A stretch of DNA of 64,000 nucleotides from a virus (IMGVR_UViG_3300026557_000002:1-64000); one strand, 5' to 3'. Counted from the first letter of the stretch, positions 1,504 through 25,045 are shown. Numbers and translations: made by a program. The notes: generated from the letters alone by a model not told the origin.

Positions 1504-2610
1504 GACAAAAGGCCGTTTAGAAAAGTGCGACAGAATACTCGGCAATTATTCTGTGGGGATCCAAGCCTTTCAGTACCCCCCCCCCTTTGAGTATTTTGAG
1601 CATTTATAATAGTATTTATACTCACTTCGGAGTATTTATTATTTATAATGCTTCGCTTTATATTCGCTTTTAAAATACTAAGTCCTTTAGAATCAATCAA
1701 AAAAAGAGGTCATCCTAATAGAACAAGGAATTCTGAGAGTATTTAATAGGTTCCTCCCGTTACTATGAAGAGACCGAATACCCACACAATCATAGGCAAG
1801 TTATTGTGTTGCACTTTGCCTTTGACCGATTATAAACAAGGCAAATCAGAGTATTTATAGTCAGGCGCCGATTATATTTGCTCACGGGCCAGCAAATAGG
1901 TATTCGATCCTGCAGAGCAAAAATTACTCGCGCGCCGGATCATGCGCGCTATCCTGAGCGCGTCCAGAGGTATGTCGTGATACTATCCGTCTGGTCCAAT
2001 GGAAGACAAGTGACAGAGACAATTCGGCCAGAAGAGACAAGCTAGACGCGAACAGAAGCCTAACGGCGCATTATATCGCACAAAGCAAAACACTTAGAGC
2101 CAAACGTTAAGAGTCAATGACCATATATGGGCAAATCAGGCAAACGGATGGACGGCGAAGCAATTCCGGCCGCGAACTCGAAAAGTCAAGAGCCAAAACT
2201 GATAATCAATACAATATTGATTTTAAAACACTGAAAACAAAGCATTTATTGCAATCGGCGCATTAAAACGGCCGTGCATTAACTAGGCGTGACAGCCAAG
2301 CAAAGCATCGATCCGAAGCGAACGGAAAAACGAAACACTGATTCTAAAGCACTTATTTTTTGGAATTCGAATTGCGGCCAGCACGTAGAGTACCGAAGCC
2401 AAGGCCGGCGGGAGTGCCGAGTCGTACCCGCCCCAGGCGGTTTTTTCCACCCGCCGACGTTAACGTGATTTGCCCTCAATAACTTACGGGTGTCACCGTG
2501 ACCGGTAGGGGTACCAACCCGGGCACCCCGCCCATGTCGGAGGCCCAGTCTCCCCATACCGTACCCGATTAGGGTATAAACGACCCCTGTAGGTACAGAA
2601 AGGAAAGGCG

Positions 2611-2820
2611 ATGCGCCGTAGAAAATTTCTCGATTGGCTCGGAACCGCGGCAGCGATCCCCGCGTTCGCTCCGCTAGTCAAATTGTTTCCGGAAACGGAC
2701 GTTGACTATTACCGCCGCAAGCAACAAAATGTTCGATCCCATTATTGAGCAAGCCGCAGCAGAGATAGGATGGCGGGCAGCCAAGTTTGCAACACAAGGT
2801 TTGAAAGATGAGCAAGTCTA
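2611..2820 (+). pseudogene. Small protein with a twin-arginine-like N-terminus, apparently frameshifted near 2697
   Basis: RBS AGGAAAGG, then MRRRKFLDWLGTAAAIPAFAP. The frame stops at 2748, but the +1 frame continues TLTITAASNKMFDPIIEQAAAEIGWRAAK... to TAA at 2820, overlapping the next ATG. Confidence 0.45.
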
Positions 2821-2993
2821 ACATCACCAAGACCGAAAAGCTCCCAGGCGGCCGTCTCCGCCTTCATTTCGAAACCGACTCAGGCACCATGGTCTACGAA
2901 TACGGCAAGGTGAACGCAGCCGGCTATCACAAAGGTCAGGATCCGAGCGAACTCCACGGGCGGCTAGTAGAGCACAAGAAGAAAGAGAAATGA
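2808..2993 (+). CDS. Hypothetical protein
   Basis: Tightly packed ORF; ATGA overlap with the next gene. Confidence 0.65.
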   Translation: MSKSNITKTEKLPGGRLRLHFETDSGTMVYEYGKVNAAGYHKGQDPSELHGRLVEHKKKEK

Positions 2994-3178
2994 CAGCAAT
3001 TTGTTCTCGATGTTCCAAAGATACCGGCAGCCCGCTCCCTGATAGCGGGATAACCGCAGGCTATTACACGGCCAGAGGCTGGGAACAGTTCGCTAATCTC
3101 GGCGAAGAGTTTATTTGCGATTCGTGTATGTGGTCGGACCCGAGGTACATTGCCGTATACGGACGAACCGATGCCTAA
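2990..3178 (+). CDS. Small Cys-pair (Zn-finger-like) protein
   Basis: CxxC...CxxC; coupled to its neighbours. Confidence 0.65.
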   Translation: MTAICSRCSKDTGSPLPDSGITAGYYTARGWEQFANLGEEFICDSCMWSDPRYIAVYGRTDA

Positions 3179-3383
3179 CGATTACGAGATCGCGCGCCAA
3201 GCCAGAAAGCATTCCCCGACCTCCGACCAGGCTAGCGGGAAGTTGCCGCCCTCGAGAGGCGAATCGGTCAAGCCGGACTTTCTTTTGTCTCACGAGAACC
3301 ACTTCGATCGGAATGTCGTGACCCCGGAGAATCTAATCCAAGGCGGCATTCTCGAAGGTAAGCAACCGGTGAAAACAACATGA
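3171..3383 (+). CDS. Hypothetical protein with YEIARQARK motif
   Basis: ATG at 3171 overlaps the previous gene's end; motif shared with other small proteins. Confidence 0.6.
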   Translation: MPNDYEIARQARKHSPTSDQASGKLPPSRGESVKPDFLLSHENHFDRNVVTPENLIQGGILEGKQPVKTT

Positions 3384-3556
3384 GCCTATCCACAATTTTG
3401 AATCAAGTCGATCAGTACATCAAGGTCAAGCCGTGGCTGCAGTTCGTCGGCTACATGTTGGCATTTGGCGGTCTGGTTTCTCGACATCCCATGCTCGCCT
3501 ACGTAGGTCTAGGCGTCTCGATGGCTGGCTGGTTATATACAAAGATTTATCCATGA
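3380..3556 (+). CDS. Small membrane protein (58 aa)
   Basis: Below the ORF-track cut-off. MSLSTILNQVDQYIKVKPWLQFVGYMLAFGGLVSRHPMLAYVGLGVSMAGWLYTKIYP, two hydrophobic segments, ATGA overlap. Confidence 0.6.
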   Translation: MSLSTILNQVDQYIKVKPWLQFVGYMLAFGGLVSRHPMLAYVGLGVSMAGWLYTKIYP

Positions 3557-3677
3557 GGTCCCATGTACTGGAAGACCAAGGTCTCGCTCAAGTCTAAAAT
3601 CTATGAGCTGATAATATTCCGCGTCTTCCGGTTGTTCGGAATAGATTTTGGATTCATGAAGATCAAGAAGGTGGCAG

Positions 3678-4034
3678 ATGGCGATAACGCCCAGCGAGAA
3701 AAACCAAAAGAAATTTGACGGCGACGTTCCGCAGCTTTTAAATGTGGAACTCCAGCCAAACGCGCGCTCCAACAAAACCATCGTTGAACAAACGACCGTA
3801 GGCGTTACAGCCAAGTCCGGTGCTACCCGCCCAGAAGGCAAGTCCGATGAGGTGACCCAAACCCTCCGATCCGGCAGTTTGCCGACTAGCGAGGCAGTCC
3901 GCGAAGTTGATCTGAAGGCTAACCCCGGCGTCCGTGAAAGAGCCCAGCAACAGCAAGAAGGCCGCGGAGACGGGAATCCGAAGAAGCGAACTCGGGCCGT
4001 TTGGGGTCAGGGTACGGAGCACGCAAAGGAATAA
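3678..4034 (+). CDS. Hydrophilic hypothetical protein (shares a motif with 13583..13897)
   Basis: RBS GAAGG; LRSGSLPTSEAVREV motif. Confidence 0.7.
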   Translation: MAITPSEKNQKKFDGDVPQLLNVELQPNARSNKTIVEQTTVGVTAKSGATRPEGKSDEVTQTLRSGSLPTSEAVREVDLKANPGVRERAQQQQEGRGDGNPKKRTRAVWGQGTEHAKE

Positions 4035-4054: not shown

Positions 4055-4717
4055 TTGATAAAAACACGAGAACAAGCATTAGAATATTTTACCAAGTATA
4101 ATTACGACCATCTTCCGGGTAAAGATCCGAATACTTTTAAGCCTTTTCTTGGCGCTAAGGTTCTTGATATTGGCGCAAATCTAGGAATGGTTACGGCTTT
4201 CTGGGCACTTAACGGTTCCGAAGTTACATCTTACGAGGCAGATCCCGAAACCTATAAGATCATGACCGACATGTTTGCTCGGATCAATATCGATGTGAGC
4301 GCCATCAACGCCGCAGTCTGGACATACACAGGTCAAGTTAGTTTCAAAGGTGTTGGGCATTTAGATGGAACTCGAGAGTGCCGCAACGGTAATATAGAAT
4401 CTGGACTGGATTCGATTTTTGTTCCTTGCGTTACCTTGTCGCAAGCCTTAGGTAATACTGTTTGGGATTGTGTAAAGATAGATATCGAGAGCGCAGAGTA
4501 CGCTGTTTTGATGAGCACCGACGTAGAATTTTTGAAGAATACTCGGTACATGCATTTAGAACTTCACGAAGACAGGCATTGCCCCAATGACGGGTGGTTG
4601 ACGGAGTCTCAGATATCACATCTACGAGAAAAATTAGAACCTGCATTTGATATTCAGGGCAGCGTTTACTCTTCTAGTTTTTGGCATTTGAAAAATAAAA
4701 AGCATTTCTCGCTATAG
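4055..4717 (+). CDS. FkbM-family SAM-dependent methyltransferase
   Basis: VLDIGANLG, YEAD, VKIDIESAE and HLELH motifs. Confidence 0.88.
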   Translation: MIKTREQALEYFTKYNYDHLPGKDPNTFKPFLGAKVLDIGANLGMVTAFWALNGSEVTSYEADPETYKIMTDMFARINIDVSAINAAVWTYTGQVSFKGVGHLDGTRECRNGNIESGLDSIFVPCVTLSQALGNTVWDCVKIDIESAEYAVLMSTDVEFLKNTRYMHLELHEDRHCPNDGWLTESQISHLREKLEPAFDIQGSVYSSSFWHLKNKKHFSL

Positions 4718-4744
4718 TTTTTCTTTATTCCCCAAGGAGGAAAT

Positions 4745-5041
4745 ATGGCAAATCTTCAAAAAGTAATTGTAGTAGGTTGTGCCATTTTAGCAGACGGCGT
4801 TAACTCAACTTATCAAATTGATTTATTGCGAGATCCGTACTTTATAAGTTTCCAAGGTAACGGATTCGGCGAACTTCCAGTAGATTGGTTTTCAGAGAAT
4901 TCGCTTAGAAATCAACCGGTAGGAGTGGTGCCAGTTAGTTCGCCGGATTCAATCTCTTTGTCGGATAATGTAGTTACGTATACATATGCAACTCCTCCCA
5001 GCGCCGGAGTAGTAGCGATATCTTTTGGTTTGCTGTTCTAA
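4745..5041 (+). CDS. Hypothetical (possibly virion) protein
   Basis: Strong RBS AAGGAGG; beta-rich composition. Confidence 0.7.
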   Translation: MANLQKVIVVGCAILADGVNSTYQIDLLRDPYFISFQGNGFGELPVDWFSENSLRNQPVGVVPVSSPDSISLSDNVVTYTYATPPSAGVVAISFGLLF

Positions 5042-5562
5042 TGATCGTAGATATACAAGACAATGGCCGTAGCGAGATTTGGCAAACGTTAATCGGTTTA
5101 CAAAAAGAATACAATTTGACTACGTTCGTTGAAACAGGAACGCAAGAGGGATCAACGTCAGAAGCTGTTTGTGATTCGTTTGAGTGCGCGTACTCTATTG
5201 AATCCGATTCGTATAATTATAATCTCGCGGTTAATCGACTTAAAGGAAGAAATGTCAATCTTATTCTAGGCTCAAGTGGAATAGAATTACCACGCTTGCT
5301 TATAACTAATAAGATTACGAAGGCGCTCTTTTGGTTAGATGCTCACGGTAATGAGCACGACGAAACGGCCGAAAATCAGATCCCTTTAGAATTAAAGGCT
5401 ATAAAAGATCATGCCCCTGAATCCCTCGTGGCCATAGATGACGTTATCCAGCACGAGGGCAAGTTTAAAATAAACGATACTTACTGGTTTGAAATACCGG
5501 AATTCTGGGACATCAAGCATTTTCCAAACATGCAGATTATGATTTTATGGAAAAAACCTTAA
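5041..5562 (+). CDS. SAM-dependent methyltransferase-like protein
   Basis: FVETGT..G, YSIE, LILGSS, LFWLDAH and VAIDD motifs. Confidence 0.75.
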   Translation: MIVDIQDNGRSEIWQTLIGLQKEYNLTTFVETGTQEGSTSEAVCDSFECAYSIESDSYNYNLAVNRLKGRNVNLILGSSGIELPRLLITNKITKALFWLDAHGNEHDETAENQIPLELKAIKDHAPESLVAIDDVIQHEGKFKINDTYWFEIPEFWDIKHFPNMQIMILWKKP

Positions 5563-8009: not shown

Positions 8010-8088
8010 CGGAGAGTAGAGGAGTTTGGCTTATCTCGTTCCCTTCGGAAGGGAAAGCACACTGGTTCGAATCCAGTTTCTCCGACCA
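8010..8088 (+). tRNA. tRNA-Pro(CGG)
   Basis: Anticodon arm TTCCC-TTCGGAA-GGGAA, T-loop TTCGAAT, ACCA end. Confidence 0.88.
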
Positions 8089-8095
8089 TTTTAAT

Positions 8096-8184
8096 CGAGG
8101 TGTAGGTCCGTAATCTGGCAGCGGTCTCGCTTTGGAAGCGAGTGCGGAAACGCCTTGGAGGTTCAATTCCTCCCATCTCGACCA
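8096..8184 (+). tRNA. tRNA-Pro(TGG) with long variable arm
   Basis: CTCGC-TTTGGAA-GCGAG; variable arm GCG-GAAA-CGC; T-loop TTCAATT; ACCA. Confidence 0.85.
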
Positions 8185-8190
8185 GTTTTC

Positions 8191-8478
8191 AGGTACACCG
8201 ACAAAGTCGCGTAATGGCCTGAAAAGTACGGCCCCAGCCCATGGCCTTAAACGGGACGCTAGCGATCGTAGACCGCTACTGGCAATCAAGTGATGGATTG
8301 CAAAAAGATTCAGTCCAACATGTGTTTCCGCGGAACACGAGTCGCGCGCTGGTTAGGCTCACCGGACTGATAGCGAGGACGTTAAACTACCGAGATGGCG
8401 TCTGTGAAACTCGGCTCGCACTGCCCCGGCGGTGGCCTCGTAACCGCCCGGATTTTAATCCGGCTGGCGCTCCACCAC
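8191..8478 (+). ncRNA. Unidentified structured RNA within the tRNA array, ending in CCACCA
   Basis: Dense hairpins and a possible pseudoknot; no convincing ORF; flanked by tRNA or tRNA-like genes. Confidence 0.45.
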
Positions 8479-8485
8479 TTTCTGT

Positions 8486-8571
8486 GGGATTTGAGTTCGA
8501 AAAGAAACGAATAGTCGCGCGAGGCTTAAGACGGACGCGAAAGGTCTCGGTTAAAATTCCGAGCGATCCCA
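8486..8571 (+). ncRNA. tRNA-like element with an enlarged anticodon loop
   Basis: GGGATT/GATCCC acceptor, GTTCG/CGAAT D-arm, TCGCG-(16 nt)-CGCGA, CTCGG-TTAAAATT-CCGAG T-arm, no CCA. Confidence 0.5.
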
Positions 8572-8579
8572 GATTTCTA

Positions 8580-8654
8580 TAGCGTGTAATTCAGTGGCAG
8601 AATGCGATTCTGATAAAATCGTCGTCGGTTGTCCGATTCAACCCATGCCTACCA
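8580..8654 (+). tRNA. tRNA-Ile(GAT), imperfect acceptor stem
   Basis: CGATT-CTGATAA-AATCG and ACCA. The 5' acceptor strand appears one G short; T-loop is TCCGATT. Confidence 0.7.
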
Positions 8655-8655
8655 T

Positions 8656-8729
8656 CGCAGCGGAGAATGGGTATTCAAGTCTGTCTCATAAGCAGACCTC
8701 CGTCAGATCGTCTCTGACCCCTGCGACCA
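8656..8729 (+). tRNA. tRNA-Met/Ile2(CAT), divergent
   Basis: TCTGT-CTCATAA-GCAGA and ACCA; atypical D-arm and T-loop (ATCGTCT). Confidence 0.6.
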
Positions 8730-8737
8730 TTTTCAAA

Positions 8738-8811
8738 GCGGGCTTGGCCGATTGGCTAGGCTCTGGTCTTCCAAACCAGCTAAGCGAATTCGATTTTCGC
8801 AGCCCGCTCCA
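8738..8811 (+). tRNA. tRNA-Gly(TCC)
   Basis: GCGGGCT/AGCCCGC acceptor, U73, CTGGT-CTTCCAA-ACCAG. Confidence 0.9.
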
Positions 8812-8816
8812 GTTTT

Positions 8817-8890
8817 GCTTGACTCGTACAAAGGTAATACGACGGTTTCGTAAACCGTTAATAAAAGTTCGAGTCTTTTGTCAAGCTCCA
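8817..8890 (+). tRNA. tRNA-Thr(CGT)
   Basis: ACGGT-TTCGTAA-ACCGT; GCTTGAC/GTCAAGC acceptor; TCCA. Confidence 0.88.
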
Positions 8891-8898
8891 AGTTCCAA

Positions 8899-8972
8899 GC
8901 TGCTATCGTTCAGTGGTAGGACATCGCTTTGGTAAAGCGGTAACTCACGTTCGATTCGTGGTAGTAGCTCCA
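8899..8972 (+). tRNA. tRNA-Thr(GGT)
   Basis: TCGCT-TTGGTAA-AGCGG; T-loop TTCGATT; TCCA. Confidence 0.88.
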
Positions 8973-8973
8973 A

Positions 8974-9056
8974 GCAGGGTTGGCTCAGCGGCGACAGCAG
9001 CAGTTTTGTAAACTGCCGGGAAACCCACGGAGGTTCGAGTCCTCCACTCTGCTCCA
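8974..9056 (+). tRNA. tRNA-Thr(TGT) with long variable arm
   Basis: GCAGT-TTTGTAA-ACTGC; variable arm GGG-AAA-CCC; T-loop TTCGAGT; TCCA. Confidence 0.85.
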
Positions 9057-9064
9057 AATTTTAC

Positions 9065-9154
9065 GGATGAGCGGCGCAGTGGGAGTGGCGCGGCAGGCTG
9101 TAACCCTGTTGGCCCTTGCGGCTATAGAGAGTTCGAATCCCTCGTCATCCACCA
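9065..9154 (+). tRNA. tRNA-Tyr(GTA)
   Basis: GCAGG-CTGTAAC-CCTGT, long V arm (normal for bacterial Tyr), ACCA. Confidence 0.85.
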
Positions 9155-9173
9155 TTTTATTTCTGCTCAGCGC

Positions 9174-9258
9174 TGGGGTGTGGCTCAACCGGCACAGCAT
9201 CTGGCTGTTACCCAGACAGTCCGCAAGGACATTACAGGTTCGAATCCTGTTGCCCCAG
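9174..9258 (+). tRNA. tRNA-Asn(GTT) with long variable arm, no encoded CCA
   Basis: TCTGG-CTGTTAC-CCAGA; V arm GTCC-GCAA-GGAC; G73; the flanks pair with each other. Confidence 0.82.
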
Positions 9259-9281
9259 CAGTGAGCAGAAAAGATTTTTAC

Positions 9282-9359
9282 GGAGTGGTCGCGTAGAGGC
9301 CAATCGCACTCCCCTGTCACGGGAGACCATCGTGGGTCCGAATCCCATCCATTCCGCCA
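9282..9359 (+). tRNA. tRNA-Asp(GTC)
   Basis: CTCCC-CTGTCAC-GGGAG; GCCA end. Confidence 0.88.
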
Positions 9360-9366
9360 TTTCAAT

Positions 9367-9441
9367 ATGAGAGTCGTTCAGCGGCTAGGACGTCGGACTC
9401 CAAACCCGACTACGGTGGTTCGAGTCCATCCTCTCATGCCA
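9367..9441 (+). tRNA. tRNA-Trp(CCA)
   Basis: ATGAGAG/CTCTCAT acceptor; loop CTCCAAA; GCCA. Confidence 0.88.
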
Positions 9442-9454
9442 TATTCGAGGGCCC

Positions 9455-9874
9455 ATGGATATCCTTCACAAGGTTCTGCTCGGCGCGGAGATTTATGTAG
9501 CCGCGGCATCAACGCTGATAGCGATATCCGCCGTTATGGGATTCATCCGCCACAAGGTCTTAGGACCTCCGGTGCCGTTTGTCCCGTTAGTTGATATCCC
9601 GAAGCAAGAGGATCGAGCCGCAGCCGAGGGTTGGTTGCATCGCGCACTCGTCGCGTTTGACATCTTTTTGAACGTCGTCGTTCTCCGCGGCAATCAAGGC
9701 GAGACCATCTCGGCGCACAGTTGGCGCGCCAGCAACGAAGGCCGCCTTTGGGGCCGGTTGATGAATCTTTGGCTTAACGGCTTCCAGGACAACCACGGGA
9801 TTAAAGCGGCTTGCGGCGATCTCGAGAGATCATCGGCCGAAGTTCAGGTACTTAAGAAAAGTTTAGGAATATAG
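9455..9874 (+). CDS. Phage membrane protein
   Basis: N-terminal hydrophobic helix; D..N....G...ETIS motif; RBS GAGG. Confidence 0.7.
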   Translation: MDILHKVLLGAEIYVAAASTLIAISAVMGFIRHKVLGPPVPFVPLVDIPKQEDRAAAEGWLHRALVAFDIFLNVVVLRGNQGETISAHSWRASNEGRLWGRLMNLWLNGFQDNHGIKAACGDLERSSAEVQVLKKSLGI

Positions 9875-9975
9875 AGTAGTATGAAGATACAAAAGTCAAG
9901 TCGATCCTCATCATCGGAATCTGCGAGTATGATGGAGGGTTGGCTGAGCGGCAAGAACGTTCACAAGACTTCAAT

Positions 9976-10051
9976 TGCCAAATGGCGCAATCGGTAGCGC
10001 AGGGGTTTCTGAAGCCCAAGGCTAAAGGTTCGAATCCTTTTTTGGCATCCA
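9976..10051 (+). tRNA. tRNA-Gln(CTG)
   Basis: TGCCAAA/TTTGGCA acceptor (U1-A72), loop TTCTGAA, T-loop TTCGAAT, CCA. Confidence 0.85.
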
Positions 10052-11098: not shown

Positions 11099-11587
11099 AT
11101 GAGAACCAAAATCAAAGGTTTATGCGGCCATTGTAGAACAAAATTAACAGAACAGAACTGTGCGCCTGTTATATTTCAGAGCGGATATGGTTTTTGTCGG
11201 GATTGCAGAAATGAATCCAGCCGCCTAAGATATAGGCGTGATCCGGAGCCCCAAAAAAGTAGATCATCTCGATGGCTAGCAATTAAAGATAATCGAAATA
11301 GTCGAACTAAGTCTGTTGTTGCTTGGCGTCGTAAGAAAGATTTCGGTATAACTCAAGAACAATTTGATGCTAAGTTTAAAGCACAAAATGGTCTTTGTGC
11401 TATCTGTAAGCAGCCTATGTTAGGGCAAGCAAGAACAAAAGTCCCGTGCCAAGACCACGACCATAAATCTGGAAAATTAAGAGACTTAATATGTATCAGC
11501 TGTAATCTTCTTTTAGGGCACAGCTATGAGAACAAAGAAATTCTTGCCAACGCTGTTTTATATTTAGAAAAACACGTCGGCATTTAA
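11099..11587 (+). CDS. Endonuclease VII-family (His-Me) free-standing endonuclease
   Basis: FGITQEQF...Q.G.CAIC...DHDH.SG..R.LIC..CN..LG motif. Confidence 0.88.
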   Translation: MRTKIKGLCGHCRTKLTEQNCAPVIFQSGYGFCRDCRNESSRLRYRRDPEPQKSRSSRWLAIKDNRNSRTKSVVAWRRKKDFGITQEQFDAKFKAQNGLCAICKQPMLGQARTKVPCQDHDHKSGKLRDLICISCNLLLGHSYENKEILANAVLYLEKHVGI

Positions 11588-15791: not shown

Positions 15792-17999
15792 ATGCCCTTT
15801 ACCGACCGAGAGAAGAAAGCAAATCAGCGAGCCCGACAAAAAGGTTTGCCAGAACCGTATCAAACAGGATCTATTCCGTCCGCCGCGAGTATAGAAGAAC
15901 GTCTCGGTCAACATGAGCAGGATCTAGCTTTCGCTTTACAGCAGGATGCGCAGCCCGCCTTTTATAAAAGTGAGTGCCGTCCTTGCGTCAAGCTTCTAGC
16001 AATCTACGAAGGCCTAGCTCTCCAAGAAGAGGAAGAAGACGAGAGCGAAGATGACACCGAAGTCAAGAAGAGAAAGAGAGTAGCCAAGAATACCAAGGGT
16101 CCGAATCCGTCCATTACTAAAATCACGATTCCGGAAATCGAACGCTTGAACGATGCGATTGATCCCAGCGTTGACGAAATTGTTTCATTTCGCCGTTGGC
16201 TTGATCTCCGAGACAAAGCCCGCAAGGATCTTTACTGGCTTTGTAAGATGCTTGGCAAAGATTTATTTCCTGACGTTCATCAAGTGATCTGCGATCAATT
16301 CGTTTCAAAGAGTTTTGACGGGATGTATCATAAGAATTATACGCTGGGGCAATTCCACCGTATGATTGATGCTCAGATCCGCATAGATGCATCAGGTAAT
16401 CCGACAAAAGAAATGATGTTGTTGGACTCCCGTGGCTTCTATAAGTCAACGATCAACGGTATCGATTGCGTCAGCTGGCACATTAATTGCCCCGACGCAC
16501 ACATTTTTATTCTGACGGGCGAGTACAAACTTGCGGTTCAGTTCTTGCAAGAAATCAAGGATTACTATTATTTCGCCAAGGGCTCTGAACCCAGCCCCTT
16601 TCATCTTTTGTTTCCTGAGTACGTACTAACAGGCGTCAAAGGCACGTCTAAGCAGCCTATGAAGTGTCCTGCTCGAGTCCTAAAACAGAAGGGCAACAGC
16701 CTCTGGGTTAACGCTATTGTGGCGAACCTGTCTGGTTGGCACTGCGATATCAAGAAAGGCGATGATATCGTCACCGACGAGAACTCGAATAATGATGACG
16801 CTCGTGCGTCCATCAAATCTAAGTACGACGGAACCGACGACCTTCTAGACCCGCACGGATTCTCGGATCACATCGGCACCAGATACTTTTCATCGGACTG
16901 GTACGGCACGCGCCTCCAGCCTGACGAGGATACGAAAGAATTAGCCTCTATCAAGTATTTCAAGCGTGGGTGCTGGACCGTAAAGCCGGAGTACCGCGAC
17001 ACCTCGTTAAAGATGCTGACGTTCGAGATGGTCAATCTGACCTTCCCGCAACTTGGCAAGACGCCCAGAGAAGCGTTTAATAAACTCCGTCAGAAGCTAT
17101 TGAAGAAGGCGGATAAGAAGAATAAGAACCCATATCGCGCGTTCTGCAACCAGCAGTTGAATGAGCCTACGGATGACAACGAGGATTCGGGTTTCGTCAT
17201 TCACTTCAGTAAAGAAGTGATTAACGCGCACACCCATCCAGCCCAAGCGGTTCCTGTAGACGGAGAGGTTTTCATTCTGTGGGACTGGGCTTTGTCTGAC
17301 AAGAAGACATCGGATTATTCGGTCGGGATAGCGGTCAAAATTTATAAAAAAACGAACGGGCAGTACGCCGTTTATGTTCTGGAAATAATTTACGATAAGT
17401 GGAAAGACTCTGAACTAGTTCGCCAGATGATTGCTTTCTATAAAAAGTACAAAGGCTTGGGCCAGTTCAAGCGTATGTATGTCGAGAATTCTAACGGCGG
17501 CGAGTTACTCAAGACCGCTCTTCAGAACGCAGCCTACAAGTTGAACGCTTTAGATATGATGGGCGAGAATGTGATCTGCTGGATTCCGGTAGATACGCGA
17601 GCTAACGCCAAGCGTAACCGCATCAAGTCGATCGAAACCCTCCTAGACGATGACCGTCTAGATTTTGTAGACAGCTCGTTATACATGGAAGAGGTTATCA
17701 AGCAATTGACGCAATACACAGGCGAGAAGAGTACCGCGTTCCGCAAGGATGATATCCCGGACGCTTTATCGTTCCTCGTTTATCCTTTGCCAGCGATCGC
17801 ACTTCAGATTGACGTCAGTACTGAAGAAGTAGAAAAAGAAATGGAGACTCGTCGCCGGGAAGAGCAGAGCAAGGCGGCATATAAGCAGATGTTCGGCGGG
17901 CATAATCCTTTGCCAGCTAAGCCGACCTCAGCCGAGCCAGCACAAAAACCCAGAGACCCTCGTCTAGCCTTATTCGGCGGCAGCGGCTGGCGCATGTAG
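15792..17999 (+). CDS. terL: Terminase large subunit
   Basis: SRGFYKST Walker A, KGDDIV Walker B, IGTRY coupling motif, WDWA...DYS and DDIPDALS nuclease motifs. Confidence 0.93.
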   Translation: MPFTDREKKANQRARQKGLPEPYQTGSIPSAASIEERLGQHEQDLAFALQQDAQPAFYKSECRPCVKLLAIYEGLALQEEEEDESEDDTEVKKRKRVAKNTKGPNPSITKITIPEIERLNDAIDPSVDEIVSFRRWLDLRDKARKDLYWLCKMLGKDLFPDVHQVICDQFVSKSFDGMYHKNYTLGQFHRMIDAQIRIDASGNPTKEMMLLDSRGFYKSTINGIDCVSWHINCPDAHIFILTGEYKLAVQFLQEIKDYYYFAKGSEPSPFHLLFPEYVLTGVKGTSKQPMKCPARVLKQKGNSLWVNAIVANLSGWHCDIKKGDDIVTDENSNNDDARASIKSKYDGTDDLLDPHGFSDHIGTRYFSSDWYGTRLQPDEDTKELASIKYFKRGCWTVKPEYRDTSLKMLTFEMVNLTFPQLGKTPREAFNKLRQKLLKKADKKNKNPYRAFCNQQLNEPTDDNEDSGFVIHFSKEVINAHTHPAQAVPVDGEVFILWDWALSDKKTSDYSVGIAVKIYKKTNGQYAVYVLEIIYDKWKDSELVRQMIAFYKKYKGLGQFKRMYVENSNGGELLKTALQNAAYKLNALDMMGENVICWIPVDTRANAKRNRIKSIETLLDDDRLDFVDSSLYMEEVIKQLTQYTGEKSTAFRKDDIPDALSFLVYPLPAIALQIDVSTEEVEKEMETRRREEQSKAAYKQMFGGHNPLPAKPTSAEPAQKPRDPRLALFGGSGWRM

Positions 18000-18038
18000 T
18001 TTCGCCTTCTGTTCGCCTAAAATAGTTTAAAATAAAGC

Positions 18039-18144
18039 TTGACAAATCGATAAAGTCGTGGTATACTGGTTAAAGATGTTGTAGCTACAATTTGGTTGGG
18101 GCGGCCTTTACCCGCCCCGATCACCCCTGTAAAGGAGGGGAGAG
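18039..18144 (+). promoter_or_regulatory. sigma70 promoter plus kissing-loop leader (copy B)
   Basis: TTGACA-17-TATACT; loop CCTTTAC (18105-18111) is complementary to GTAAAGG (18129-18135) in hairpin CCCCT/AGGGG. Confidence 0.8.
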
Positions 18145-18798
18145 ATGTTCGTATATTTAATCACAAATAAAATTAACGACAAGAAGTACGTTGGTCAACA
18201 TTCTGGAGATGACCTTCAGAAGTACTGGCGTCGTAATGTTGTGTGGGCTCTTCATAACCAAGGGCAGAAGCGTTGTCTTTATTCAGCTATTAGAAAATAC
18301 GGTCCAGAAAATTTTGAGATCAAGCCTCTTGTTATTGTTGGGACAAAACAAGAGATGGATTATTACGAGCGCTATTTAATAGTAGACTTTGGCACGCGAG
18401 CACCGAACGGTTACAATTTGACGGATGGCGGAGAAGGAACCCCCGGTCACGCAGTTTCCGAAGAGGGTCGCCGAAAGATGTCGGTTAAAAGTAAAGGACG
18501 GGTTAGTAAATTAAAAGGCATTCCCAAGTCTAAAGAATCTAATCAGAAAAATTCAGAATCTCATAAAGGAAAGGTTCTTTCAGATAAACACCGAAGAAAT
18601 ATATCTTTAGGGCGGATTGGTAGCAAGCATTCTGAAGAAACTAAAAAGAAAATGGCGGAATCCGCCAAACGAGATTGGGAACGAAGAAGAGCGTCTGGCT
18701 ATATAGTATCAGAAGAAACTAAAAATAAAATGTCCGTCGCGCATTTAGCACGAAGACAAAAAGAGATTAATGCCGGAGAATCTGGAGCAACGAGTTAA
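18145..18798 (+). CDS. GIY-YIG homing endonuclease with NUMOD3 repeats
   Basis: FVYLITN.IN.K.YVGQ, GYNLTDGGEG, repeated HSEETKKKM-type motifs. Confidence 0.92.
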   Translation: MFVYLITNKINDKKYVGQHSGDDLQKYWRRNVVWALHNQGQKRCLYSAIRKYGPENFEIKPLVIVGTKQEMDYYERYLIVDFGTRAPNGYNLTDGGEGTPGHAVSEEGRRKMSVKSKGRVSKLKGIPKSKESNQKNSESHKGKVLSDKHRRNISLGRIGSKHSEETKKKMAESAKRDWERRRASGYIVSEETKNKMSVAHLARRQKEINAGESGATS

Positions 18799-20878
18799 TG
18801 AACTCTTTATCACTCCTGCGGCAGAAATCACAGAAGAAAATACCCAAGTAGACCCAGATACAAATACCATACAACTGAATGACGAAGCTTCTGTTTTGCT
18901 CGTATTGCAAAATACCGAGAAAGCAGATGAGTATATTAATGTCCAGCAGTGGGCGAGCGGGTGGACAATGGCTGATCTGTTGTATCAATCGCCAGCGTCT
19001 CAGTCCGCTTTCGACGGCGGAAACGTCGGGCAGGCTTCCGTCCCGAAATTTATGGTAAGTAGTATCGTTTCTGCTATTGTTCCAAAAGTTATGGGCGGAA
19101 TTTTTTATGAAGATCCGCCGTTCTTGCTGCGTCCTCGTCCGTCCGTAGAAGCGGATGTTATCCGCGCCAAGACCGCGATATTCTCTTCTCAACTAGGCGC
19201 GATGCGTTTCGAAGAGCAGGTAGAGCGCACTCTTGATCAAGCCGCTTTGCTTGGCACCGGTATCATGAAGTGGGGGTATACCGAGCGTGTCAAGAAGATG
19301 AAGAAGTATAAGCGCAAGGGAGACAAGGTCTCCGTTGGCCAGCCGGAAGGCGGCGTCGCTAAGTTTGATTCTCCAGATTCTGACGACTTTGAAATAGAGT
19401 TTTACGACAAGATTATTTCGCATCCCTGGATCCGCTTTACGGATATTAGAACGGTTCTGGTCAATCCAGGCTGTCGCGTCGGCGACATTAGAGAAGCGGG
19501 CTGGGTAGTCTATAGAGATTATGCAACCTATTCTGACCTAGACAAGCTGCGCGGGTACGAAGGCTACGTCATCCCCGCAGAAGATGTTCTTAGACACGTC
19601 TTCGCTGAAGGCATTACTTCCGGCCCAGATAACATTACTATGACGTTGCCAGAAGGTATGCTTGGATATCTCCAGCACGCCCTACCTCGCAGCTATAAGA
19701 CGTCGGCAGATCCGAACTCGGCACCGATGGAGATGCTCGAGTACTGGGATGACGAGAAAGTCATTGTCGTGCTCTGCTTCAATGGGCATAACGTCCTGAT
19801 TCGTAATGAAGCGAATCCGTACGGAAAGATTCCCTTCTATAGCTTTAACTGGCGCAATATCCCCGATTGCTTTTATGGTCAAGGCCTAGGCCTATTGATC
19901 GGCTCAGAACAGATCGTTGAGCAAGGCGTCACGAACTTAGCGCTTGACTTACTAGCGTACGGGCTACAGCCGACCGCTGTACGCAAGAAGGGATTTAATA
20001 CTTTGACGCAGGACGTTCGTTGGCGCCAAGGCGGGATTATCGACGTTGAAGAAGACGTCGACAAGGCTTTCAAGTTCCTGCAGATGCCCCCTGTTCCAGG
20101 AGAGGCGTGGCAGTTTATCCAGCAGGCGCAGAGTGCTGGCGCATCCACGTCAGGCGCAAACGAACAGGTTGTCCAAGGCGCAGGAGCTATGGGCGTTCGT
20201 TCAACTGGTATGCGATCAGGAACCGGAGCGGCCGCGGTCATCCAGGCTAATGCATCTAGGCTCGATGGTCCGGACGGGCGATTTGTCCGTCAGGTATTCG
20301 AACCGTGGTTGTACCAGATGGATGATTTGAATAACGACCTTCTGCCAACGTCGGTTATTCGCGACGTTTTAGGTGAGGAACTTGGTCCGGCCTATATGGT
20401 TGATCATATCAAGTTCCGTGAAGCCAAGATTGAATACGAAGTTCTCGCGGGCGCGAAGCTCGGGGCAAAGAAAGAAATGTCCCAGGCTCTGCCTATCATT
20501 ATTCAGTTGCTGAATAACCCGACCTTCGTGGCTAATGCTAACGACGCGGGATATCAGTTCGACGCTCCAGCCATTTTCAAAGCGTTTACTGACGCCGCAG
20601 GTTGGAAGTTTAGCCAGAGCTTCTTGCGTAAGATGACTCCTGAAGAGAAACAGAAGCACGACGCTAATTCGCCGGCTGCTTTGCAGCAAGCCCAGATCGC
20701 GAACAATAATAAGCAGATGCAAGCCAAGTTTGAACAAGAACAGACTCTAGAAAATCAGAAGCAGCTCGGCAAGGCCGCTAACCAAGGCTATCGTACAGCC
20801 ATCGAGCACGCGACCCAGTCCGAGTTGCAAGAGGGCCAAGCTGGTAATACGGGCGAGTTCTCAGAAACGGCTTTATAG
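18770..20878 (+). CDS. Portal protein
   Basis: 702 aa after TerL; GTGIMKWG, NPYGKIPF, FYGQG motifs and a Gln-rich C-terminal tail, as in P22/N4-like portals. Confidence 0.88.
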   Translation: MPENLEQRVNELFITPAAEITEENTQVDPDTNTIQLNDEASVLLVLQNTEKADEYINVQQWASGWTMADLLYQSPASQSAFDGGNVGQASVPKFMVSSIVSAIVPKVMGGIFYEDPPFLLRPRPSVEADVIRAKTAIFSSQLGAMRFEEQVERTLDQAALLGTGIMKWGYTERVKKMKKYKRKGDKVSVGQPEGGVAKFDSPDSDDFEIEFYDKIISHPWIRFTDIRTVLVNPGCRVGDIREAGWVVYRDYATYSDLDKLRGYEGYVIPAEDVLRHVFAEGITSGPDNITMTLPEGMLGYLQHALPRSYKTSADPNSAPMEMLEYWDDEKVIVVLCFNGHNVLIRNEANPYGKIPFYSFNWRNIPDCFYGQGLGLLIGSEQIVEQGVTNLALDLLAYGLQPTAVRKKGFNTLTQDVRWRQGGIIDVEEDVDKAFKFLQMPPVPGEAWQFIQQAQSAGASTSGANEQVVQGAGAMGVRSTGMRSGTGAAAVIQANASRLDGPDGRFVRQVFEPWLYQMDDLNNDLLPTSVIRDVLGEELGPAYMVDHIKFREAKIEYEVLAGAKLGAKKEMSQALPIIIQLLNNPTFVANANDAGYQFDAPAIFKAFTDAAGWKFSQSFLRKMTPEEKQKHDANSPAALQQAQIANNNKQMQAKFEQEQTLENQKQLGKAANQGYRTAIEHATQSELQEGQAGNTGEFSETAL

Positions 20879-21376: not shown

Positions 21377-22708
21377 ATGAACGTCGATACAGTACTTGAC
21401 CTAGAGTGGCTGAGGTCCGCCACATTTGACGATTTGCAAGCGGCAGCGCGCTTATCTTCGCAAGACAAATCTAAGTTGACAGAACTTAATGCCACACTGG
21501 CTAGTCCCGAAGGCAAGGTTATTGCTCAGGACATGAGCCAATGTATTCGAGCCGGAAAGGCTTATGTTCCGCCAGCCATCCCACCAGAAGCGGTAGACGA
21601 AGAGGAAGCAGCCCAGATCGCCGCGGATACCGCGCGAGCAGACGCTGAAGCCGCAGAAGCCGAGCGTATTGCCGAAGAGCAGCGAGCAGTACTGGCGCCG
21701 GTTGTAGCGACCGCAGATCAAGAGGCCGAGTCAACCGAATTGGCCAAGCTCGGGATCGCGCTTCATAAAGATTCCGCTGGCAATATCACCAAGATTGTCC
21801 AAGACTACCAAGTCAAAGATGACGCGGGTCGCCCGATTGGCCGTCCGACACATCTTGAGGCAAAGTCCTGGCCCGAACTGGTTTCAAAGCAGAAGGCCGC
21901 TCACGAGAACGCCGTGCGATATGCCGAGAGAACAAAGCAGAATCAATTAAAGAGCAGAGACATTTTGGCACAGACAGAGCAGGTGACCCAACAGGCCACC
22001 AAGGCTCGAGCGGAAGCCGATGAAGCCGTCGCTGAAGCAGCCAAAGAACCCGCCAAATTAGGCGAGGCACTTCGTAAGGTCACACACGCGGAAAGCAAAT
22101 CTGTCGAGGCATCGCGCACAGCCGCAGAAAACCAGATGACAATTGTCAATGACTGGTTAGCTGACCACGAACACAACTATTTGAATTGTCAAGCGAACAC
22201 CGACATCATTGGGGCCTGGCTGAAGGAAAATAACCGGAAGCTGTCTTATGAAAATCTCGACGTCGCTTTCAAGGCAAACGAACATCGACTAGCAAAGCCA
22301 ATAGCTGATCTAGTCGCAGAACCCGCCGTAGTAGCGCCTAATGCGCCCACTCCGGCACCCGCAGCTCCTGTTCCAGTCCCGTCGGCAATACCGGCACCTG
22401 TTATAGTGAGCACGGTTCCAGCATCTACGCCAGCCCCCTCGGCATCTCAGCCGGTGGTGGCAGCGCCAGTAGTCACGCCTGCAGCGGCGACAAATACGCC
22501 AGCTGCCCGTAGACCTGGGGTCAACGGTTCACTCCCTCCCGGAACGCTAACTGCAGCGCGTCCTAGCGTGGAACAGAAACCGCAAACGACCACAAGAGCC
22601 GCATTACTGAAGGCTATTAACAAAATGTCCTCAACTGAATACCGCCAAAAGCTGAAAACCTCGGCCGAATTCCGAGCCCAGCATGACGCGGTGGGCATAG
22701 CCTATTAA
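21377..22708 (+). CDS. Putative capsid scaffolding protein
   Basis: Ala/Glu coiled coils, Pro/Ala linker, C-terminal MS..EY.. helix, immediately before the MCP gene. Confidence 0.7.
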   Translation: MNVDTVLDLEWLRSATFDDLQAAARLSSQDKSKLTELNATLASPEGKVIAQDMSQCIRAGKAYVPPAIPPEAVDEEEAAQIAADTARADAEAAEAERIAEEQRAVLAPVVATADQEAESTELAKLGIALHKDSAGNITKIVQDYQVKDDAGRPIGRPTHLEAKSWPELVSKQKAAHENAVRYAERTKQNQLKSRDILAQTEQVTQQATKARAEADEAVAEAAKEPAKLGEALRKVTHAESKSVEASRTAAENQMTIVNDWLADHEHNYLNCQANTDIIGAWLKENNRKLSYENLDVAFKANEHRLAKPIADLVAEPAVVAPNAPTPAPAAPVPVPSAIPAPVIVSTVPASTPAPSASQPVVAAPVVTPAAATNTPAARRPGVNGSLPPGTLTAARPSVEQKPQTTTRAALLKAINKMSSTEYRQKLKTSAEFRAQHDAVGIAY

Positions 22709-22752: not shown

Positions 22753-24368
22753 ATGTCTGGACCAAATCCAAGCGGCAATAACGTTTCAAACGTTTTGACC
22801 GCACAGGCCATTTTGTTCGATAAGGAGCTCATCCCGAACCTTTTTAATGGGGTCACTTTAATATAAAAGTGAGAATTTTCTCTAATTGACTTGAACGCTG
22901 TGAAGCCAACAAGGGGCAAGCGAAAGCAGCCTGAGAGACTAAACGAGAAAACGCCGTAAGGCGATGCGATAGTCCGTTCTAACGAGAAAAAGAATCGTTA
23001 GCTAACACATAAGCAAAGGTGAGACCGATGCGTTCGTAGCAGTCGCCGAACGCCGTGTGCAAGGCCTGCACATGGGCATTAACCGCCAGTTCTTCCAGTA
23101 TAACACCATCGCTGGTGACATTATACAGAACGCTGACGGCGTAGTTGGTTCGCCAGAAGTTATTTCGCAGATTTCCGCTCCGGCCCAGGTCGGTGAATGG
23201 AACAACTACGGTAACTTCTCGGCATTCAGCATCGCTTCTTCCATCGACGAACTCGTTGGGAACAGCGCGGTTGAACTCGGGTATCAGGCTGGACAGAGCA
23301 TTTCCGAACTGTACAGCGCCGTGGCAGACAGCGCAGCCTCGGTTGACGGTAACGTTAACCAGTCCGCTCTGTTGAGTTCGCCCTTCACTCTCGACTTGGC
23401 AACAATTCGTGAATTGAAGCAGCAACTTGTTAGCGCATCTGTTCTTCCTTGCAAGCGCGGGAAGTACATGGGCGTTATCAGCCCCAACGTCCTAGGAGAC
23501 ATTTACAACGCAACGACAGTGAACAACTCGATCGTCGATTTGTGGAAGTACTCCAACGGCGAGAAGTTTGACGCAATAGCTGGTGCAGATCAGACCATGG
23601 AAATCGAACTTCCCGGAACGAACATCGTGTTCCGTCAGACCCCATTCGTAACCAAGACCGCGAACTTCAGCGCAGGTAAGACCGCATACAGAACATACGT
23701 ATTCGGCAACTACGCGATGATCGGTGTGTGGCTCCAAGTTCAAAATGGACTCCTAGCAGCGTAATCTGCTAGTAGAAAATTCTCTCTGATTGACTTGAAC
23801 CCTGAAATGGGAACAAGGCGCAAGCGAAAGCAGCGTGAACGACTAAGCGAGAGAACACCCTTCGGGGTGATGCGATAGTCTGCTCTGTATCAAAAAGAAA
23901 GATACAGAGGTTGGCAGAAATGACCAACCCCGCGAAAGCGGTAACAAACGGCCCGGAGACACAGATATGGATGAGGGAGACTGGCGTACAATCGACTGTA
24001 GAGTCGTGACCGATGCTCCTCCGTCTTCGTATGATCCTGTCGCCACAATCGGCGGTTGGGCATCGTATAGATTCCATTAAAAGTCCGGTGGAATTAAAAT
24101 TTTCTCTAATTGACTCGAACGGTGAGAATCCCAACGAGGCGCAAGCGAAAGCAGCGTGAGAGACTAAGCGAGAAAACAGCGAAAGCTGATGCAATAGTCC
24201 GAGCACCCAGAAAAATGAACTGAGTGAGGTTGACAGAAATGATCAACTCCGCCGCAAGGTGAGTAACAAAAATAAGGGAGTGCGTCGCAGACAGTGACAC
24301 TTCCTCCGGCAACTGGAACGAATACCCAGCGTACTCGTTTCATTGACTCGGTTCCCGCAATTCAATAA
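22753..24368 (+). CDS. Major capsid protein (N4-gp56-like), spliced from 4 exons: 22753-22841, 23014-23740, 23952-24077, 24288-24368 (340 aa)
   Basis: RBS GAGG then MSGPNPSG...DKELIPN|L KGETDAF...ELGYQAGQSI...IGVWLQV|PGDTD...YDPVATIGGWASYRFH|QTVTLPP...IQ*. The joined exons total 1023 nt and are in frame. Confidence 0.88.
22842..23013 (+). mobile_element. Group I intron 1 in MCP (172 nt, no ORF)
   Basis: 5' exon ends in U paired to IGS GGGGT; P3 TTTTCTC/GAGAAAA; P7 GACTA/TAGTC; terminal G. Confidence 0.85.
23741..23951 (+). mobile_element. Group I intron 2 in MCP (211 nt, no ORF)
   Basis: P1 AGTT|C with GGACT (U.G at the splice site); P3 TTCTCTC/GAGAGAA; P7 GACTA/TAGTC; terminal G. Confidence 0.85.
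24078..24287 (+). mobile_element. Group I intron 3 in MCP (210 nt, no ORF)
   Basis: P1 ATTCCAT/GTGGAAT and the same core. The 3' splice site at G24287 is favoured by partial P10 pairing; alternative in-frame Gs lie at 24278 and 24284. Confidence 0.82.
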
Positions 24369-24373
24369 ACCTC

Positions 24374-24466
24374 TTGACATAAGCAACCGCTTATGCTAGA
24401 GTTGCATCAAAGTAGGTTGGGGATGTGCCAGTAACACATCCCTGACCGACTCTTACTGGAGAGTAG
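24374..24466 (+). promoter_or_regulatory. sigma70 promoter plus kissing-loop leader (copy C)
   Basis: TTGACA-17-TAGAGT; loop CCAGTAA (24428-24434) is complementary to TTACTGG (24453-24459) in hairpin ACTCT/AGAGT. Confidence 0.8.
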
Positions 24467-25045
24467 ATGACGAAGTTAATTGATTTACAAGGTCGAAGAT
24501 TCGGTCGTTTAAAAGTAGAGCACCGATATTTAGACCACATTACTAGCGGCGGAAATATCGTTGTAATGTGGGAGTGTTTTTGTGATTGTGGAAAGATAGT
24601 AGAAGTCTCCTCAAACTCCCTATTACAAGAAAAAACAAAATCTTGCGGTTGTCTATCCTTAGAATTGACGAAGGCGGTCGGCCTCGCTAACAGAAAGCAC
24701 GGTGGATATTCTGATGCGTCGCCTTACGCAGATCGAGTTAAGTATCAGGCGCTAGTCAATATTAAAGAGCGGTCCCGCCGTCGCGGGTACGAGTCCGATT
24801 TAGATTTACAAGATTTGCCAGAACTTACAGATGTTTGCCATGTGCTAGGGCTGAAGTATAACAAAGGTTCTTTGAAGGACAAGAACGCATCTCCTTCTGT
24901 TGATCGAAAGAATTCAAACCTGCCGTATTTGAAGAAATACAAGGACAACTTAGTCTTTATATCCCATCGGGCAAATCGCATTAAATCTGATGCTAGTATA
25001 GAAGAGATTAGGAGGGTCCTAGAATACCTAGAAACAAAAGGATAA
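24467..25045 (+). CDS. HNH-type free-standing endonuclease
   Basis: DL.G.RFGRL.V...W.C.CDCG...KSCGC N-terminal module; SPSVDR....Y..DN...IS..AN..K nuclease motif. Confidence 0.85.
   Translation: MTKLIDLQGRRFGRLKVEHRYLDHITSGGNIVVMWECFCDCGKIVEVSSNSLLQEKTKSCGCLSLELTKAVGLANRKHGGYSDASPYADRVKYQALVNIKERSRRRGYESDLDLQDLPELTDVCHVLGLKYNKGSLKDKNASPSVDRKNSNLPYLKKYKDNLVFISHRANRIKSDASIEEIRRVLEYLETKG

Follow-up and report, generated by a model that had tools for sequence, protein, structure and literature searches.

The DNA analysed here (64,000 nt; the window) makes up the opening 64 kb of a 97,153-bp IMG/VR virus record (IMGVR_UViG_3300026557_000002), a metagenome assembly with an estimated CheckV completeness of 92%. 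It derives from an uncultivated soil phage of about 97 kb that is podophage-like and distantly related to Tunturiibacter phage Tunturi_3. The gene for its major capsid protein, predicted to have the HK97 fold, lies on the forward strand (nt 22753-24368) and consists of four exons (89, 727, 126 and 81 nt) separated by three inserts (172, 211 and 210 nt). These inserts are very probably miniature group I introns that are removed by self-splicing, and that represent selfish, polymorphic passengers spread by homing rather than conserved parts of the gene.

Exon 1 (nt 22753-22841, 89 nt) begins with an ATG at nt 22753 and specifies residues 1-29 plus two nucleotides of codon 30, and its length and register are those of the N-terminus of an intronless homologue, P0001. 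Exon 2 (nt 23014-23740, 727 nt) carries residues 30-272 and is 97% identical to P0001, while exon 3 (nt 23952-24077, 126 nt, residues 273-314) and exon 4 (nt 24288-24368, 78 nt plus TAA, residues 315-340) are colinear with the same protein, the latter through its final residue. Joining the exon ends at nt 22841, 23740 and 24077 to the exon starts at nt 23014, 23952 and 24288 gives the predicted spliced junctions CCGAACCT|CAAAGGT, CAAGTT|CCCGGA and TTCCAT|CAGACA (vertical bars mark the joins) and a sequence of 1,023 nt (1,020 coding nucleotides and a stop codon) for a protein of 340 residues. P0001, itself uninterrupted and 340 residues long, runs through all three junctions (ELIPNL|KGETD, VWLQV|PGDTD and SYRFH|QTVTL). 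It was the best of 291 homologues recovered with exon 2, many of which are uninterrupted at 340-343 residues.

In the list of open reading frames (ORFs) of the window, the capsid gene is present only as fragments of 37, 235 and 37 residues. Many database homologues of 280-328 residues are truncations that end or begin at or near intron sites, and the read-through tails of the short homologues (e.g. QNGLLAA) are translated intron starts, so that intron-split genes are common in this capsid family and tend to be called as fragments. An earlier note on this DNA, made from the sequence alone, had described three ORF-less group I introns whose removal gives an in-frame protein of 340 residues, where the ORFs show only a fragment of 235 residues, and had proposed colinearity with intronless relatives as a check. 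Its coordinates and sequences are correct, the joined exons encode the protein as described, and colinearity with P0001 holds at all three junctions. It follows from this anatomy that synthesis of the intact capsid protein is predicted to require three splicing events. An intein, frameshifting and a group II intron were also considered and are ruled out by early stops (the capsid frame closes a few codons into each insert), by the absence of an ORF, by the group I R and S elements, and by the U and omega-G boundaries.

The inserts are related to one another, as had been proposed. Direct-repeat families of 85 and 36 nt have three copies each across them (three repeat families link these stretches), and a composite pattern of the R and S elements (R...S) occurs exactly three times in the 64 kb but not once in 100 shuffles. 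Helices P3, P4, P5, P6/6a, P7 and P8 were drawn by hand on the three cores, where 98.8% of the cells are paired and seven pairs show compensatory changes. A covariance model built from the same three cores (R1) found 40 copies in the window and 81 related loci, every one of them on the coding strand and within the capsid gene, and only the three copies described here in the entire 97-kb genome. Among the 33 distinct copies, 97.1% of the cells are paired, compared with 40-53% when the partners are slid, and 22 of the 28 pairs have changed on both sides. Each of the helices P3, P4, P5, P6, P7 and P8 has support, and this extends to P7 as its part of the P3/P7 pseudoknot. In P7 there is one A-U to G-C swap. 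The 30 introns with mapped ends all have a U at position -1 paired to G, and a terminal G; in the relatives the ends were set by protein colinearity together with the U/G rule, and may be in error by 1-2 nt where sequences slide. Core, covariation, boundaries and restoration of the frame together support the assignment of the inserts to the group I introns, as predicted from their sequence.

As the record is a metagenome assembly, and its estimated completeness is that given above, the gene might instead be dead or mis-assembled, i.e. a pseudogene or assembly chimera in which the inserts are retained. This is extremely improbable, as the exons match an intact homologue at 97% identity, the frame is restored perfectly at all three sites, the window showed no second capsid gene, and inserts of this kind, with conserved and covarying ribozyme helices, recur in more than 40 independent contigs.

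Several observations weigh against the interpretation as mobile group I introns. The covariation alignment was fitted to its own model, and kinship among the sequences inflates the shuffle control, so that both figures lean toward the structure; so large an effect, seen with such varied types of pair, would nevertheless be hard to explain otherwise. The Rfam group I model (RF00028) scores intron 2 at 20.5 bits (E 0.018) and intron 1 at 14.5 bits, below its gathering score of 50, and gives no match to intron 3 at E <= 10. The P1 helices are short, with a mean of 4.8 bp at their own site against 3.0 bp in cross-site controls, a quarter of which reach the own-site median. As regards homing, the protein of a free-standing HNH endonuclease gene found downstream of the capsid gene (see below) has no match in Pfam (E 0.1), and for introns 2 and 3 no candidate endonuclease was recognised.

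At the gathering threshold, Rfam finds only tRNAs in the window. The sub-threshold alignments to RF00028 place P3, P8, R (GACUAA) and S (AUAGUC) correctly, and that model has 253 positions, many of whose peripheral parts are missing from the window introns (P5abc and P7.1/7.2 are absent). Scores of this order mean that standard annotation misses these introns. Since the test of P1 length is only modestly discriminating, the argument from P1 is based on specific cases of compensatory change between orthologous introns. At coding sequence (CDS) site 914, exon and internal guide sequence (IGS) have changed together (GCTACCAT/GTGG vs GCGACGAT/GTCGTCG), as they have at site 1008 (GCGTT/GGACT vs GCATT/GGATT).

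Intron 1 (nt 22842-23013, forward strand, as are the other two) is 172 nt long and is inserted at CDS site 89 in phase 2. It has the IGS GGGGU at nt 22849-22853, a P2 helix (CACUUU/AAAGUG), a core at nt 22872-22980, a single P9 and a terminal G at nt 23013, and scores 136 bits with R1; its minimum free energy (MFE) fold recovers P1, P2, P4-P6, P7, P8 and P9. The same site is occupied in five of the related loci (L048-50, L054, L072). Intron 2 (nt 23741-23951, 211 nt; CDS site 816, phase 0) has the IGS GGACU at nt 23747-23751, a P2 helix (CUAGCAG/CUGCUAG), a core at nt 23776-23886, helices P9, P9.1 and P9.2, and a terminal G at nt 23951 (R1 score, 124.9 bits; MFE z = -5.35). Site 816 is also occupied in L089, as confirmed in the DNA, and in the truncated proteins P0005, P0007 and P0026. 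Intron 3 (nt 24078-24287, 210 nt; CDS site 942, phase 0) has a P1 of 8 bp with the IGS GUGGAAUU at nt 24088-24095, lacks P2, and continues with a core at nt 24096-24205, P9 and P9.1 to a terminal G at nt 24287 (R1 score, 130.6 bits). Its site is shared with L038-40, L046 and L055-58.

The P1 helices are each anchored on a U.G pair and join ACCU|U with GGGGU, AGUU|C with GGACU, and GAUUCCAU with GUGGAAUU, so that the claim of an individual P1 with U.G at the 5' splice site and a terminal G proved accurate for all three introns. Across the window introns, unconstrained MFE folds recover P1, P2, P3-P6, P8, P9, P9.1 and P9.2, and loops L5, L6a and L8 are mostly GNRA tetraloops. No ORF resembling a homing endonuclease was found inside the window introns, and their small or antisense ORFs match no Pfam family; the ORF list and the Pfam search thus agree with the description of the inserts as ORF-less. 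A UAACA motif is found 7-21 nt 5' of the 3' splice site in nearly all members of the family (in the window at nt 23000-23013, 23940-23951 and 24262-24287), and may be a docking element of the P9.0/P10 type.

Identification of the interrupted gene is based on structure prediction and gene order. The exon translations have no match in Pfam or PHROG, the full-length homologues none in Pfam, and a profile of close homologues gave only spurious kinesin matches in the PDB. An AlphaFold2 model computed on an alignment of 62 diverse homologues, taken from a profile search of the full library, has a predicted local distance difference test score (pLDDT) of 79.4 and a predicted template modelling score (pTM) of 0.78, while a model from the 26 close homologues only (pLDDT 32) was unusable. 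With Foldseek, the former matches the coat proteins of the podophages Pan3, GP4 and N4 (9e99) and of Shigella phage Moo19 at E 1e-12 to 4e-12 and template modelling (TM) scores of 0.58-0.70. The family profile also matches the N4 coat weakly, over residues 12-76 only (E 1.2e-4), and the Pfam family PF25209 (Phage_capsid_4) matches 22 of the 62 family members, all distant ones. The only GenBank phage match is the 'major head protein' of Tunturi_3 (36.6% identity), a 97.6-kb podovirus from tundra soil (PMC11924767). On this model the protein is a major capsid protein of the HK97 fold, with its spine helix and its A and P domains. The label 'N4-gp56-like' used in the earlier note is acceptable only in a loose structural sense: the N4 coat is among the top structural matches, but Pan3, GP4 and Moo19 match equally well, and identity to these structures, N4 included, is only 12-14%.

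The gene order terminase-portal-scaffold-capsid backs this assignment. The large terminase gene (nt 15792-17999) is followed by a free-standing gene for a GIY-YIG/NUMOD3 endonuclease identified by Pfam (nt 18145-18798), the portal gene (nt 18770-20878) and a small ORF. Directly upstream of the capsid gene, in the window as in relatives, is a scaffold-like gene for an Ala/Glu-rich protein of 443 residues (nt 21377-22708, forward strand). Upstream of this structural module are a cluster of 11 tRNA genes (nt 8010-10048) and, at nt 11099-11587, a free-standing gene with an endonuclease VII domain (Pfam).

The capsid gene was compared with the 80 best-matching IMG/VR loci (the IMG/VR samples used here are lists of limited length rather than censuses). 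Uninterrupted genes are found in 48 loci and one or two introns in 29, while three are cut by contig ends. R1-positive introns occupy 12 sites in the CDS of 1,023 nt (nt 62, 84, 89, 816, 914, 922, 931, 938, 942, 951, 998 and 1008), all of which fall in invariant blocks of the protein, and the three R1 introns of the window gene are the most in any one gene among the loci examined. That presence, number and site of introns vary among relatives is the pattern of a selfish element and not of a conserved regulator. The earlier note had suggested a possible timing device or GTP sensor, in which three obligatory splicing steps would gate capsid production. In favour of such a role, it stands to reason that the output of capsid protein hinges on the three splicing events, and guanosine is the cofactor of group I splicing. 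This reading is nevertheless very unlikely, because 48 of the 80 best-matching relatives make the same protein from an intronless gene and others have one or two introns at different sites, because each window intron is more closely related to copies in other phages than to the other two in its own gene, and because the same intron family is found in unrelated genes (see below). A regulatory role of this kind is not supported where intron presence, number and position vary so freely among close relatives.

Some of the relatives show further variation. L158 has two R1 introns and, at about residue 94, an insert of about 920 nt (nt 4577-5496) that is also present in L102. It gives no R1 match, and may be an intron of another type or a divergent, endonuclease-bearing copy, in which case the gene of L158 would also be interrupted three times. 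In L060 (nt 1928-3000), and also in L071, two introns of the family flank a mini-exon of 22 nt (CDS 63-84), which recalls the 23-nt exon of orf142 in Staphylococcus phage Twort, for which exon skipping is described in the accounts cited below. In the window gene, skipping of exon 3, whose 126 nt are a multiple of three, would give an in-frame product of 298 residues, and skipping of exon 2 (727 nt) would break the frame. The site-89 intron of L072 (nt 3090-3254) is only 165 nt long compared with the 172 nt of intron 1, and has a P1 of 7 bp and no P2.

Between the cores of the three window introns identity is only 77-83.5%, while each is closer to an intron of another phage. The nearest copies are those of L049/50 for intron 1 (90.8%) and of L039/40 for intron 3 (87.2%), in both cases at the site occupied in the window, and that of L078b, at site 1008, for intron 2 (92.8%). 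A recent triplication within the gene is rejected on these values (87-93% vs 77-83.5%). The tree of the 109-nt cores is weakly resolved and was not used for finer inference. The guide tracks its target across sites: at site 89 the guide is GGGGU and the target ACCU|, at site 922 they are GUCCAC and GUGGAU|, and at site 942 GUGGAAUU and AAUUCCAU|. Guides of the GGACU class serve sites 816, 938, 951 and 1008, all four of which end in GUU|, and the GGUGCC class serves sites 942 and 998, both ending in CAU|. This is the pattern that reverse splicing with a short guide, or integration at look-alike sites, would leave, and either mechanism can be inferred from it. It had been proposed that one intron lineage re-targeted three sites of this mRNA by changing its IGS. 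The general part of that idea stands, inasmuch as one family occupies many sites with site-matched guides, whereas recent re-targeting within this mRNA is not supported by the core identities.

A candidate for the agent of homing lies 98 nt 3' of the capsid stop codon, where a free-standing gene on the forward strand (nt 24467-25045) encodes an HNH homing endonuclease of 192 residues that matches phrog_374 (HNH endonuclease, 6e-20) and phrog_3322 (4e-17). Homologues are free-standing at the same position in L049 and L050 (69% identity). Others, with 42-58% identity, are found inside capsid introns at site 62 (L037), site 84 (L060 and L071) and site 89 (L054, 58%), where the ORFs sit in the P1 loop. 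In L060 and L071 it is the second of the two introns that has the ORF, which there separates the 5' splice site from the guide. A full-length HNH copy is present in seven loci, every one of which has an intron at sites 62-89, and the intronless L008 keeps only a partial copy. This association suggests that the downstream HNH protein may act in trans as the mobiliser of intron 1 (trans homing), and most likely the gene bears on this intron only. Between the capsid and HNH genes of the window, immediately 3' of the capsid stop (nt 24369-24466), are a promoter-like box (TTGACA-17-TAGAGT) and a GC-rich hairpin. The same box and hairpin follow the capsid gene in L046, L053 and L078, which lack the HNH gene, so that the element belongs to the capsid-distal junction and not to the endonuclease.

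Such an arrangement could also serve as a weapon with its own immunity, the HNH enzyme cutting intronless capsid alleles of co-infecting relatives while the resident intron splits the target and protects its genome, to the advantage of the carrier in mixed infections. A free-standing HNH gene does adjoin an intron-bearing, highly conserved and essential gene, alleles with and without introns turn up in similar kinds of sample, and a case in which an intron endonuclease acts in interference between phages has been published (PMC11620839). Two loci (L048 and L072), however, carry the site-89 intron without an HNH gene in the stretch fetched, and specificity of cleavage and effect on fitness are not readable from sequence. 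We consider this role possible but rather unlikely; it would in any case add to, and not replace, the explanation of the introns as selfish passengers.

The scheme for these passengers builds on the intron anatomy, covariation, junctions, polymorphism and HNH association described above, from which we infer the catalysis, the target of the HNH enzyme and the route of transposition. After transcription, each intron would fold into a P1-P9 ribozyme, in which the IGS pairs with the last 4-8 nt of the exon and places a U.G pair at the splice site. Exogenous guanosine would then attack the 5' site and the freed exon would attack after the terminal G, and three such events would join the four exons into an mRNA for the 340-residue coat protein. 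The introns would persist because splicing renders them nearly harmless, and would spread between co-infecting relatives by endonuclease-driven homing, in the case of intron 1 probably by means of the free-standing downstream HNH enzyme (collaborative or trans homing). Reverse splicing or illegitimate integration, wherever 3-4 nt match the guide, would probably account for the occasional colonisation of new sites.

The intron family is also found well outside the capsid gene studied here. When IMG/VR was scanned for the R...S pattern, at least 120 stretches matched; 80 loci were examined, and in these R1 matched 111 places with scores of up to 125 bits. A homologue of the window capsid protein was present in only 15 of the 80. 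Among 82 reading frames that flank the matches, 17 match phrog_1357, a major-head family that covers the distant branch of the window capsid family, 16 match phrog_283, the family of P22-type coats, and five match the major-head family phrog_267, at least one of these also matching phrog_283. Of the loci that were tested singly, one (L127) matches another major-head family, phrog_14242. Major-head genes account for roughly 40% of the flanking ORFs. Other flanking frames encode ribonucleotide reductases, portal, terminase, tape-measure and tail proteins, and many homing endonucleases. A GenBank entry for an uncultured podovirus (MW202674.1, nt 16569-18084; L205, nt 2193-3708) has a P22 coat gene that is split by the same intron family but annotated as two CDS, with the intron core between them given as a 'hypothetical protein' of 39 residues. 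The family is widespread in uncultivated phages, frequent in coat genes, and essentially unannotated. A broader proposal, plausible but tentative, is that the miniature introns (165-250 nt, below the Rfam threshold) form a single group I family, widespread and so far without a model, that has specialised on major capsid genes of phages, with at least 12 sites in the gene studied here across a clade of soil phages and others in the phrog_283 and phrog_14242 coats. It would move by short-guide reverse splicing to any site that ends in GTT or CAT and by HNH-assisted homing, the HNH gene being either outside the intron or in its P1 loop.

As gene callers and Rfam miss these introns, the most abundant protein of the virion is annotated as fragments, while the R1 covariance model recovers the introns cleanly. 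Together with its relatives, the locus offers a natural series in which to study how group I introns reach new sites, with 12 sites in 1 kb, guides that track their targets, and an endonuclease that is either free or intron-borne. The copies of 165-172 nt are candidates for very small natural ribozymes.

The window gene is a clear and well-supported new example, and not a new kind, of interrupted gene, as multi-intron capsid genes and small phage introns have already been published. The rarity of capsid introns implied by the earlier note does not hold, since introns in structural and capsid genes, including a capsid gene with three, are on record (PMC10136315, PMC3706429, PMC11878797). The latter case is the crAss-like phage of the Zeta group OHFV01000001, whose major capsid protein gene has three group I introns according to a review (PMC10136315). 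It resembles the window gene in this respect, but is of another lineage, the Crassvirales of the gut, whereas the window comes from a soil virus distantly related to Tunturi_3 and its three introns belong to one family that occupies 12 sites across relatives. The introns of Twort orf142, as summarised in two papers that cite the original work (Landthaler & Shub 1999, cited in PMC10136302 and PMC11878797), are of type IA2, about 250 nt or longer, and shown to self-splice. That gene, by the same summaries, encodes the tail tube, while the window gene encodes the capsid and its introns are predicted from sequence. A group I-type intron is also found in the major capsid gene of mycobacteriophage LittleE and of lactococcal phage Tuc2009 (PMC3706429), and for LittleE splicing was shown by reverse transcription PCR and by N-terminal sequencing across the junction (PMC3706429). 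These are single introns, that of LittleE being 819 bp with an HNH gene, whereas the window has three that are ORF-less and about a quarter of that size.

The position of the HNH gene is that expected for collaborative homing, for which the psbA intron of cyanophage S-PM2 with the free-standing F-CphI and the T3/phiI system are the examples given in a review (PMC3984707). That review describes both collaborative (trans) homing and the way in which an intron can take up an endonuclease gene that was free-standing, and in the present case there are relatives that carry the same endonuclease inside an intron. The host gene, psbA in S-PM2, is a capsid gene in the window. Other parallels are the Jug jumbo phages of the gut, with introns of about 206 nt, 18.5 of them per genome, and stand-alone HNH genes (PMC12880540). 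In these and in the Bastillevirinae (PMC11878797), many short, ORF-less group I introns split essential genes into two or three pieces and stand-alone HNH genes are abundant. Their hosts are mainly terL, nrdD and DNA polymerase genes, whereas the family described here is most often found beside major-head genes.

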